Origin: Halodesulfurarchaeum sp.
GTDB lineage: Archaea > Halobacteriota > Halobacteria > Halobacteriales > Halobacteriaceae
DNA length: 64,000 nt
Assembly (NCBI GenBank): GCA_034520565.1
Contig: JAXHNL010000002.1
Location: forward strand, 1,216,001-1,280,000
Direction of reading: 5' to 3'
Part shown: piece by piece, positions 30,168 through 45,247 of the stretch
Numbering within the stretch: position 1 is the first letter of the stretch
How the letters are laid out: every line of letters starts with the position of its first letter
The notes under the pieces: generated by a model
Seen by the model: only the letters and a program-made list of their open reading frames with translations
What the model was told of the DNA's origin: nothing
Databases searched by the model: none
Position numbers and translations under genes: made by a program

Positions 30168-30250
30168 GCGCGGGTAGCCAAGTGGTCAACGGCGCAGCGC
30201 TTAGGACGCTGTGGGGTAGCCCTCCGCAGGTTCGAATCCTGTCCCGCGCA
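30168..30250 (+). tRNA. tRNA-Leu (anticodon TAG)
   Basis: GCGCGGG/CCCGCGC acceptor stem, CAGCG-CTTAGGA-CGCTG anticodon arm, long variable arm, GGTTCGAATCC. Confidence 0.95.
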
Positions 30251-30699
30251 GTGCGAGACCCGACCAAAGGGAGGGTCTCGGTAAAGGCGAACGGCGAGGA
30301 ACGAGCCGTGAGCCATGAGCGAGAAAACGAGTGAACGAGCAGGCACGGATTCGAGCCCTGGAAACCGAGCGAAGCGAGGTTTCCTCCGGTTCGAATCCTG
30401 TCCCGCGCACTTTTCAGCGACACTCACCGGCGAGGGACCCCCCGGTGTCCCGAGCCGTGAGATCGCGGTTGTAAATGCGTTCACCGGATTCGAATCAGGG
30501 AAGAGCTTTGCTCTGACCGTGGTTCGAATCCTGTCCCGCGCAGTGCGAGACCCGACCAAAGGGAGGGTCTCGGTAAAGGCGAACGGCGAGGAACGAGCCG
30601 TGAGCCATGAGCGAGAAAACGAGTGAACGAGCAGGCACGGATTCGAGCCCTGGAAATCGACCGAAGGGAGATTTCCTCCGGTTCGAATCCTGTCCCGCG
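30229..30699 (+). repeat. Tandem array of tRNA-Leu 3'-end copies with structured modules (A-B-A')
   Basis: GGTTCGAATCCTGTCCCGCG(CA) at 30229, 30388, 30521 and 30680 (periods 159/133/159); A and A' differ internally at only 4 nt. Confidence 0.95.
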
Positions 30700-30709
30700 G
30701 TATCAGTCG

Positions 30710-44775: not shown

Positions 44776-44892
44776 TCGGACTTCGAAGCTACTGAACGTC
44801 GGACGACGCTGTTTTTGCGTTTTTCGGGGAGCTGAAGGTCCTCCTGAACAATGCGGTCGAGCCGACTCTGCTCCAGTGGGGTGACGGAATAG

Positions 44893-45184
44893 CGGTGCGG
44901 AGGGGATTTGAACCACGAGGACTTCGCTCAACCAGGTTTCGCTCGTCCTCTGGGCTCAAATCCCTCGTCCCCGTTCAAACGAAGACGGCGCGGTTCCTGA
45001 CGGAACACGCGCCTGGTGTGTTAGAAGCGGTGAGGAGGGGATTTGAACCAGAGGAAGACTCGCTCCCGTTGGTCGCTCGTCTTCCAGGGCTCAAATCCCT
45101 CGTCTCCGTTCAAACGTAGACGGCGCGGTTCCTGACGGAACACGCGCCTGGTGTGTTAGAAGCGGTGAGGAGGGGATTTGAACC
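44893..45184 (-). repeat. Tandem array of tRNA-Ser 3'-end copies with two 135-bp structured modules
   Basis: CGGTG(A/C)GGAGGGGATTTGAACC at 44893, 45028 and 45163 (period 135). Confidence 0.95.
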
Positions 45185-45247
45185 CCTGAGGCTACAATAG
45201 CCACCTGCTCTCAAGGCAGGCGCGTTGGGCCGCTTCGCTACCTCACC
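45163..45247 (-). tRNA. tRNA-Ser (anticodon TGA)
   Basis: GGTGAGG/CCTCACC acceptor stem, CCTGC-CTTGAGA-GCAGG anticodon arm, long variable arm, GGTTCAAATCC, G discriminator. Confidence 0.93.

Follow-up and report, generated by a model that had tools for sequence, protein, structure and literature searches.

Closest described systems

The attC sites of integron cassettes have the core consensus GTTRRRY. The CTX phage exploits the Xer system (XerCD), and a folded single strand can imitate a duplex recombination site. Among single-stranded folds, GNA hairpins of the d(GCGAAGC) type are unusually stable DNA mini-hairpins. tRNA-like processing signals are known from plant mitochondrial t-elements, from mascRNA and from a tRNA-like element that precedes haloarchaeal 5S rRNA. 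The excerpted text of one study reports PATEs down to 52 bp in Haloquadratum (PMC3119063), and that of another a stable tRNA-His 3' trailer of about 60 nt on northern blots of Haloferax volcanii (PMC3495736).

The window analyzed here, a stretch of 64,000 nt, contains two 135-nt units in tandem directly 3' of a tRNA-Ser(TGA) gene. Units of this kind apparently form a large family of small hairpin-bearing DNA behind haloarchaeal tRNAs that has not been described so far. We found no description of them in the papers searched, and the excerpted text of a review of archaeal tyrosine recombinases (PMC8371274) mentions neither the T-loop nor hairpins nor miniature elements. Like integron cassettes, the units form arrays that grow at one fixed site, and their hairpin cores have been exchanged between units. 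Their main hairpin, H3, which is the candidate recombination site, has covarying stems. It also resembles attC in being an imperfect hairpin with internal loops, strand bias and more conservation of structure than of sequence, and in having complementary feet that end in ...AAC / GTT.... Unlike integron cassettes, the units carry no ORF and have no IntI-type integrase known alongside, they are anchored at a tRNA gene rather than at attI, each with a tRNA tail, and the feet of H3 are tRNA T-loop sequence (GTTCRAAT), which does not fit the GTTRRRY core. An integron with IntI and ORF cassettes was rejected, as there is no credible ORF in any unit (97-169 nt) and the tyrosine-recombinase matches of the genome lie elsewhere.

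Other small repeats were compared in the same way. The units are small, non-coding, hairpin-based and strand-specific, like PATEs, the ends of IS200-IS605 elements and REP/BIME sequences. However, PATEs and REPs are dispersed, lack a target duplication and depend on a Y1 transposase, whereas the units stand behind tRNAs and carry a tail repeat of 21-23 nt. The model of the Y1 transposase (PF01797) had 0 matches in the 81%-complete genome and the end hairpins of its three TnpB elements differ from H3, and together with the tRNA-bound position and the tail repeat this led us to reject both a PATE/IS200-IS605 and a REP/BIME with RAYT identity. A MITE was rejected because the ends of a unit (TTCT... 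on the left, the flank of the inner hairpin on the right) are not inverted repeats and the bounding direct repeat is at least 21-23 nt long; the inverted T-loop feet lie internal to one end of the unit. The array is not CRISPR-like either, as what lies between the tail copies is mutually homologous sequence (98% over 98 nt) and the variable hairpins match only other units.

On the RNA side, the units resemble tRNA-like signals in that a copy of the acceptor/T strand is paired in a helix ending at the discriminator base and would lie within a longer transcript. They differ in that their T loop is base-paired, the helix is much longer than 12 bp and acceptor pairing is inconsistent. A tRNA or tRNA pseudogene (RF00005) was rejected, as no cloverleaf spans the units and only true tRNAs score. 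Rfam 15 returned only tRNAs, in the window at E up to 10 and at seven further loci at E up to 1; its tRNA and mascRNA models had no match over the units in the window or at the seven other loci, and ARAGORN had none. A box C/D or H/ACA guide RNA was likewise rejected: the best match, to sR1, scored 11.9 bits against a gathering score of 45, there was none at the seven further loci, and inspection by eye of the listed sequences found no CUGA (box D) after the antisense arm. We also saw no bulge-helix-bulge splice motif in the hairpin folds. Finally, the units recall the accretion of att sites by cis-mobilizable elements and tandem proviruses, since they have direct repeats of the tRNA 3' end, lie in tandem and are interleaved with integrase elements. 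Unlike att-flanked elements, however, they are only 100-170 nt long, are unrelated to the viruses and plasmids searched and share a class-wide hairpin. Each of the closest known systems thus fails at least one defining feature in these comparisons.

An array of two units behind tRNA-Ser(TGA)

The array is anchored at the tRNA-Ser(TGA) gene at 45162..45247 on the minus strand, which is called by ARAGORN and scores 59.2 bits with the Rfam tRNA model. A first-pass annotation of the window, made from the sequence alone, had proposed a two-module array here; ARAGORN and a repeat search show that it is real and tRNA-anchored, and every sequence that the annotation quoted (the bulged-T hairpin, the antisense arm and both inner hairpins) was found. 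The proximal unit occupies 45027..45161 and the distal unit 44892..45026, both on the minus strand. The repeat search returned a direct repeat of 98 nt (44952-45049 and 45087-45184, 98% identical, spacing 135) as well as a 25-nt family of three copies (44891-44915, 45026-45050 and 45161-45185), which are the 3' end of the tRNA and two copies of it.

Read along the minus strand, each unit consists of a 13-nt T-rich start followed by three hairpins. The first, H1, is a bulged-T hairpin of 27 nt (45122..45148 in the proximal and 44987..45013 in the distal unit), evident from sequence and folds, and the second, H2, is a short hairpin of 20 nt recognized in the folds (45102..45121 and 44967..44986). 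The third, H3, has as its 5' foot an antisense T-loop arm (45088..45099 and 44953..44964), identified from inverted repeats and folds, and as its 3' foot a copy of the last 23 nt of the tRNA, which spans G52/G53 to the discriminator base and lacks the CCA. This tail copy is without mismatch over the last 20 nt in the proximal unit (45027..45049) and has one mismatch in 20 nt in the distal unit (44892..44914), a T to G change that is the single substitution reported at first pass. Between the feet lies an inner hairpin, seen in both sequence and folds. That of the proximal unit (45053..45085) has a 7-bp stem, facing GAGCGA strands and a small apical stem-loop, and that of the distal unit (44917..44950) has another sequence and the same fold. 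In both, the facing GAGCGA strands enclose G-C/C-G between two tandem G.A pairs. Identity between the units is 98% over their first 98 nt, and the inner hairpins differ in sequence with a similar fold, as the first-pass annotation had described.

The predicted RNA folds of the sense strand reach -67.3 kcal/mol (z -6.5) for the proximal and -67.5 kcal/mol (z -5.9) for the distal unit, and none of 200 shuffles was as stable. The opposite strand folds less stably, at -64.1 (z -4.3) and -58.4 kcal/mol (z -2.5), and with DNA parameters the difference between the strands has the same direction and is weaker. H2 is present in the DNA fold of the proximal unit and the RNA fold of the distal unit, and it is absent from the minimum-energy RNA fold of the proximal unit.

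Units behind tRNA genes of the genome and the class

The genome of the window (1.86 Mb, 62% G+C, 81% complete) contains many more units. When a unit was defined as a copy of a tRNA's own last 20 nt, with up to 4 mismatches, within 900 nt downstream, 17 of the 44 tRNAs called by ARAGORN were found to carry one to three of them, 23 units of 97-169 nt in all. A hairpin criterion adds three tRNAs whose tail copies are decayed or displaced, namely tRNA-Met, tRNA-Glu(TTC) and an intron-bearing tRNA-Arg(TCT) that ARAGORN missed. The window itself has a second array on the plus strand (30168..30701), where tRNA-Leu(TAG) (30168-30250) is followed by units of 159, 133 and 159 nt. The common plan of a unit is a trailer-like 5' part with local hairpins, a very stable H3 hairpin of 50-70 nt and the last 21-23 nt of the tRNA. 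All 22 of the H3 hairpins collected in the genome lie downstream of a tRNA or a tRNA tail copy and are co-oriented with the tRNA.

These wider comparisons change the view of the units as a constant scaffold with a variable cassette, which had been suggested from the tRNA-Ser array. Most of the 5' part copies the native trailer of the tRNA and varies with both genome and tRNA; it appears constant in the tRNA-Ser units only because the two are recent duplicates. The inner part does not vary freely, being drawn from a limited set of hairpin types common to the class and to different tRNAs, and the proximal inner hairpin has a 95% identical copy behind tRNA-Arg(CCG) of the same genome. Searches with the inner hairpins against the genome and against phage and plasmid records matched only other such units of the genome, and the 292-nt array used as a query had no match in 50,697 phage or 72,556 plasmid records. 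Among 2.9 million viral contigs there were three pattern matches, which we attribute to chance as they fall in a bacterial prophage ORF (twice) and in a phage tRNA array. A spacer-like reading of the inner hairpins is therefore without support.

The recurrence of units behind many other tRNAs and across the class goes beyond what the first-pass annotation had observed. A strict H3 pattern, with both T-loop feet and 20-50 nt between them, matched in 154 of 301 genomes of the class Halobacteria, and its backwards control matched in 0. A slightly looser pattern matched in 13 of 20 genomes of the class versus 0 of 141 other genomes of the phylum, and a still looser one in four of five genomes that were negative for the strict pattern; one 99%-complete genome of the class had no match even to a loose pattern. 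In a scan of one genome per prokaryote species, 72-73 of the 80 matches listed carry Halobacteria names, including Halorubrum, Haloarcula, Natronomonas, Halobacterium, Halorientalis, Halobellus, Halanaeroarchaeum and Halodesulfurarchaeum, and the six bacterial matches among those listed are other things, such as convergent tRNA tail fragments and a sense/antisense palindrome of Gly/Ala tRNA. Among the genomes sampled, the family is confined to the class Halobacteria, and it occurs in most of the haloarchaeal genomes sampled. The class-wide matches fall into a few types of about 50, 60 and 69 nt.

The association with tRNA genes holds across these genomes. We sampled 40 loci in about 38 genomes belonging to other genera, and in 39 of these a tRNA precedes the hairpin by no more than 900 nt on one strand. 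The tRNAs include those for Val, Asp, Ser, Gln, Leu, Phe, Lys, Arg, Pro, Gly, Met and Ala. Of 42 evaluable hairpins, 30 have the tail of the resident tRNA behind them with no more than one mismatch over 12-13 nt, and the tail is perfect at 23; three tRNA-Ser cases that were mis-parsed are left out of this count. The presence of the family in Halorubrum, Haloarcula and Halobacterium makes it easily testable in culture, and it merits a covariance model of its own.

Covariation in the H3 hairpin

The feet of H3, GGATTYGARCC and GGTTCRAATCC, are the antisense and sense forms of the T-loop sequence, and a C(GNA)G loop flanked by tandem G.A pairs caps its inner stem. We examined its structure in 19 hairpins of one type (type a), chosen by eye for a common internal-loop sequence. 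In this set 98.1% of cells are paired, compared with 27-53% in slid controls; part of the outer helix is imposed by the search pattern itself. Changes on both sides are seen at seven pairs, and the number of doubly changed cells is 45, versus 14.1 +/- 3.3 in shuffles (0 of 500 reach 45). The Y-R pair of the outer helix, which the pattern leaves free, is C-G in 10 hairpins and U-A in the other 9 without exception, and the R-Y pair adjoining the C(GNA)G triloop apex covaries as well. H3 is a real single-strand structure, as supported by this covariation. The structural conservation in relatives on which the first-pass annotation had staked its reading is seen too, the pairing of the hairpins being kept through compensatory changes: H1 has variants with such changes at three positions behind tRNA-Ser in four genomes of the genus (including G008, G001 and G010), and a compensatory variant of H1 also stands at tRNA-Lys(TTT) of the present genome.

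Hairpins with the C(GNA)G apex number 37 in the genome, versus 3 for a backwards control, with 24 located within 1.5 kb downstream of a tRNA and 13 away from tRNAs. When hairpins were considered as general gene terminators, they showed no consistent orientation relative to crude gene calls.

The two feet of H3 relate differently to the resident tRNA. Beyond the loop, the tail copy agrees with it at 10.27 of 12 positions, and perfect copies number 14 of 22. For the antisense arm, agreement is only 5.77 of 12 positions overall, compared with 4.75 for other tRNAs, and within the T stem it is 3.68 of 5 positions for the resident versus 2.71 of 5 for other tRNAs; the Y/R position of the arm agrees with the A/G in the loop copy for 19 of 22 hairpins. 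In the second unit of the Leu-TAG array, the arm fits the T stem of Leu-GAG. This difference between a resident-specific tail copy and a poorly fitting arm indicates that the tail copy belongs to the site and the arm to a traveling body. Because the arm extends into the acceptor strand weakly and inconsistently, a faithful mimic of the acceptor/T-arm minihelix does not seem to be maintained, and we consider such a mimic weakly supported. In the tRNA-Ala units, for instance, a G opposite U70 is kept in one and not in the other.

Turnover and probable growth from the tRNA side

The number of units, which the first-pass annotation expected to vary among relatives, does so. At the orthologous tRNA-Ser(TGA) of genomes of the genus there are two units in G000, G008 and G010, five in G001 and at least one in G011, and the hairpin types differ; in G001 a pair of units has been duplicated as a block. 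The tRNA-Arg(TCG) gene shows a presence/absence polymorphism, with units in G000 and G010 and none in G001, G008 and G019. Behind tRNA-Glu(CTC), a single old unit whose copy is decayed stands in G001; in G010 a new 102-nt unit is placed exactly between the tRNA and this older unit, and the arrangement in G000 is different again. Growth from the side of the tRNA had been proposed from the single substitution in the distal copy, and it is consistent both with this 102-nt unit and with the 12 multi-unit arrays, where divergence of the last tail copy exceeds that of the first in nine, equals it in two and falls below it in one. Hairpin cores also recur at different tRNAs: an identical core of 58 nt is found at tRNA-Pro(TGG) and tRNA-Ser(TGA) of G001, with both flanks specific to the respective tRNA. 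As a separate observation, tRNA-Pro has a second, smaller kind of unit in which only the acceptor strand is paired around a GNA hairpin.

The reading that we favor, at a probability of roughly 40%, is that the units are non-coding cassettes inserted site-specifically at tRNA 3' ends by a putative enzyme. We infer how the units insert, that they pass through a single-stranded intermediate and that they are selfish (non-functional); these points would fit together as follows. A unit would enter by recombination or insertion at the T loop or 3' end of the tRNA gene, which would leave the tRNA intact and displace the previous tail copy outward, and repeated entry would make the array grow from the tRNA side. 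Later changes to an array would come from unequal recombination between tail copies and from exchange of hairpin cores between loci. The element recognized may be the hairpin of the tRNA-sense strand, either as single-stranded DNA or as a transcript, and the candidate enzymes are tyrosine integrases that act in trans from mobile elements targeting tRNAs, or else a host enzyme present throughout the class. The weightiest points for such insertion are the tRNA linkage with a repeat ending at the discriminator base, the entry on the tRNA side and the fast turnover. The conserved, strand-specific hairpin with its T-loop feet, the exchange of cores and the absence of units from the viruses and plasmids searched belong to the same group of points. 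The class-wide distribution, the polarity of the arrays, the contrast between tail copy and antisense arm and the interleaving with integrase elements at tRNA-Arg(TCT) speak for it as well.

Other observations sit less well with cassette insertion. Filled and empty sites of different species could have arisen through homologous exchange of old alleles instead of fresh insertion, and the searches found no free, excised, plasmid-borne or virus-borne copy of a unit. On steric grounds a double-stranded circle as small as 100-170 bp is improbable, and insertion therefore requires the assumption of another intermediate, single-stranded or otherwise. The 5' part of a unit often copies the native trailer that is found after the array, so that many direct repeats run on past the tRNA end into the trailer; a fixed staggered cut would not give such a repeat.

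The same extension of repeats beyond the tRNA end, with 5' parts that copy the native trailer, is what might be expected if no dedicated machinery were involved. Stable trailer hairpins would then provoke replication slippage or template switching, which would create direct and inverted duplicates of the tRNA tail, and the cores would be spread by gene conversion in the polyploid cells. We regard this as improbable. It would account for the alternation of sense and antisense tail copies with hairpins between them, for the block duplication of a unit pair in G001 and for the 37 C(GNA)G hairpins (versus 3 in the control), 13 of which lie away from tRNAs. However, it leaves unexplained the restriction of the events to tRNA tails and the almost invariable start of the repeat at the T loop, as well as the near-identical cores at different tRNAs that have only 11-bp feet in common. 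Arms templated locally should also fit the resident tRNA well, yet they fit weakly. If the units are instead mobile cassettes, they would constitute a very small type of site-specific element present at about 40% of the tRNA genes called in this genome.

Strand bias and the tRNA transcript

The strand bias of H3 is marked at the level of RNA. Under RNA parameters, 20 of 22 hairpins fold more stably from the sense than from the antisense strand (mean -6.5 kcal/mol), and under DNA parameters 13 of 22 do (mean -1.3). The internal loops of the type-a hairpins have invariant unpaired bases, and six of the 19 have a G.U pair at one fixed helix position. Several arrays have T-rich stretches after the last tail copy, compared with just TTCT directly after the tRNA. 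The antisense arm in G085 is a better fit to the 3' end of the upstream tRNA-Gln than to the downstream "copy".

These features bear on the main rival to cassette insertion, in which the units are functional parts of the tRNA primary transcript; we judge it rather unlikely, and it deserves more weight than any other alternative discussed here. The arm might pair with the T arm or 3' strand of its own tRNA, or with the decoy copy, so that the unit would switch or buffer the folding of the tRNA and the processing of its ends. A second possibility is that the unit is released by tRNase Z as a stable, protein-bound trailer RNA, with turnover at the DNA level being secondary. The invariant unpaired bases, the fixed orientation and the stronger bias under RNA parameters fit a functional transcript at least as well as they fit a cassette. 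A role in the transcript would also agree with the G.U pairs at a fixed position, with the T-rich stretches behind the last copy, with the better upstream fit in G085 and with the co-orientation of H3 with the tRNA, which holds in nearly all of the 40 loci as well as in all 22 hairpins of the genome. The stable tRNA-His trailer of Haloferax volcanii, as given in the excerpted text of PMC3495736, offers some encouragement. On the other hand, the number and type of units change fast, and the extension of the arm into the acceptor strand is weak and inconsistent. A housekeeping role is unlikely, given that orthologous tRNAs within one genus can lack units altogether and that one 99%-complete genome of the class is without a match. 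If the units were functional transcripts, they would add an unrecognized layer of tRNA precursor biology in well-studied archaea.

Integrase elements interleaved with units

The intron-bearing tRNA-Arg(TCT) gene is followed by 15 kb of DNA with 38-50% G+C, in which units and integrase elements alternate. Moving outward, the order is the tRNA, an integrase element encoding a 380-aa tyrosine integrase (Pfam), a 13-nt core, a unit and a full tail copy, and then a second set made up of an element with a related integrase end, a core, a unit and a variant tail copy. This order indicates that integrases use both the tRNA and the tail copy of a unit. Neither of these two resident integrase elements has flanks related to the units, and the 81%-complete genome has only four to five tyrosine-recombinase matches. 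This small number of recombinases, the lack of matches to a Y1 transposase and the different hairpins at the ends of the TnpB elements weigh against cassette insertion.

The interleaving with two low-GC integrase elements at tRNA-Arg(TCT), one of them inside the tail copy of a unit, would suit a different origin, in which the units are scars or minimal att-only derivatives of viruses and plasmids that integrate at tRNAs, accumulated in tandem in the manner of cis-mobilizable elements. The location at tRNA 3' ends, the direct repeats ending at the discriminator base and the tandem arrays would be expected of such remnants as well. The array is indeed bounded by direct repeats of the att core at a tRNA 3' end, as such a scar would be. 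It shows no sequence relation to the attP flanks of a known element in the records searched, and we hold this origin to be decidedly improbable for the units. The phage and plasmid records gave no match and the viral contigs only the three chance ones, the flanks of the resident integrase elements are unrelated to the units, and independent decay would not give a few hairpin types that recur throughout the class behind at least 12 tRNAs. Decay of integrated elements and slippage each account for parts of the picture only, and the four readings (cassette, transcript, scar and slippage) are not fully exclusive.

The units would also explain the abundance of partial tRNA 3' ends and tandem att sites in haloarchaea, and they affect both the calling of provirus and island boundaries and the annotation of tRNAs.

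A more specific version of cassette insertion, which we put forward as speculative and doubtful, is that the units act as integron-like cassettes devoid of ORFs. The sense strand, once folded, would rebuild as a hairpin the duplex of the attachment core of the tRNA gene (T loop to 3' end), and the units would so borrow the integrases of whichever tRNA-targeting virus or plasmid is present. Insertion beside the tRNA would leave a spare landing site, and the arrangement would be comparable to the borrowing of XerCD by the CTX phage. If this were true, the units would represent either a new hyperparasitic mini-element or a host decoy att site that spares the tRNA. Such an element appears to be confined to Halobacteria, possibly together with nanohaloarchaeal partners; one of the matches listed in the scan of prokaryote species belongs to a "Nanoarchaeota" MAG, which has a convincing unit behind tRNA-Ala.

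Units behind tRNA-Leu genes

In the window, the tRNA-Leu(TAG) gene heads a plus-strand array at positions 30168-30701, in which the three units downstream of the gene measure 159, 133 and 159 nt. Units 1 and 3 differ solely in the inner hairpin, in which both sides have changed at two base pairs, while the remainder of the two units is identical. The hairpin of unit 3 is also found elsewhere in the same genome, behind tRNA-Leu(GAG).

Integrase-bearing DNA behind tRNA-Arg(TCT), and hairpins away from tRNAs

Outside the window, an intron-bearing tRNA-Arg(TCT) and a low-GC tract occupy positions 516872-532000 of contig C2 of this genome (loci L003 and L005); this tRNA gene received no call from ARAGORN under default settings. 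The tract downstream of it comprises ~15 kb of DNA at 38-50% G+C. Besides a PLD-like gene, it contains two tyrosine integrase ends that are related to each other, and two tail units are interspersed within it. Hairpins capped by a GNA loop, of the type seen at the unit apex, also occur on C2 away from any tRNA, at ~355930, 762606 and 1395022-1395084, and two of these precede a TnpB gene by ~300 nt and lie on the strand opposite to it.

Other unit architectures and wider matches

On the same contig, tRNA-Val(GAC) (1042945-1043019) and tRNA-Val(CAC) (1076917-1076991) have in common a nearly identical 143-nt unit, and their downstream flanks are homologous. At position 66, the tail copy behind tRNA-Val(CAC) carries the base of tRNA-Val(GAC).

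A second kind of unit, lacking the T-loop feet that flank the inner stem, was observed at tRNA-Pro(TGG) in two other genomes of the genus (L095 in G001 and L096 in G010). In it, a GGGGCC arm and a hairpin with a GNA cap are combined with a tRNA copy restricted to the final ~11 nt, and the three together form an acceptor-stem-like helix. Downstream of tRNA-Gln(TTG) in genome G085 (L078) there are three 111-nt units in tandem, whose antisense arm matches the 3' end of the upstream tRNA at ~22/25 nt and whose downstream "copy" retains the T loop alone.

Beyond named Halobacteria, a MAG labelled Nanoarchaeota (L102, 49% G+C) has a convincing unit behind tRNA-Ala(CGC), followed by a GAGCGAAGCGA hairpin. 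The unit family may reach nanohaloarchaeal partners, or else the contig may be mis-binned. A Rhodospirillaceae MAG (L164) contains a perfect palindrome whose two strands are called by ARAGORN as different tRNAs, tRNA-Gly(GCC) and tRNA-Ala(GGC).
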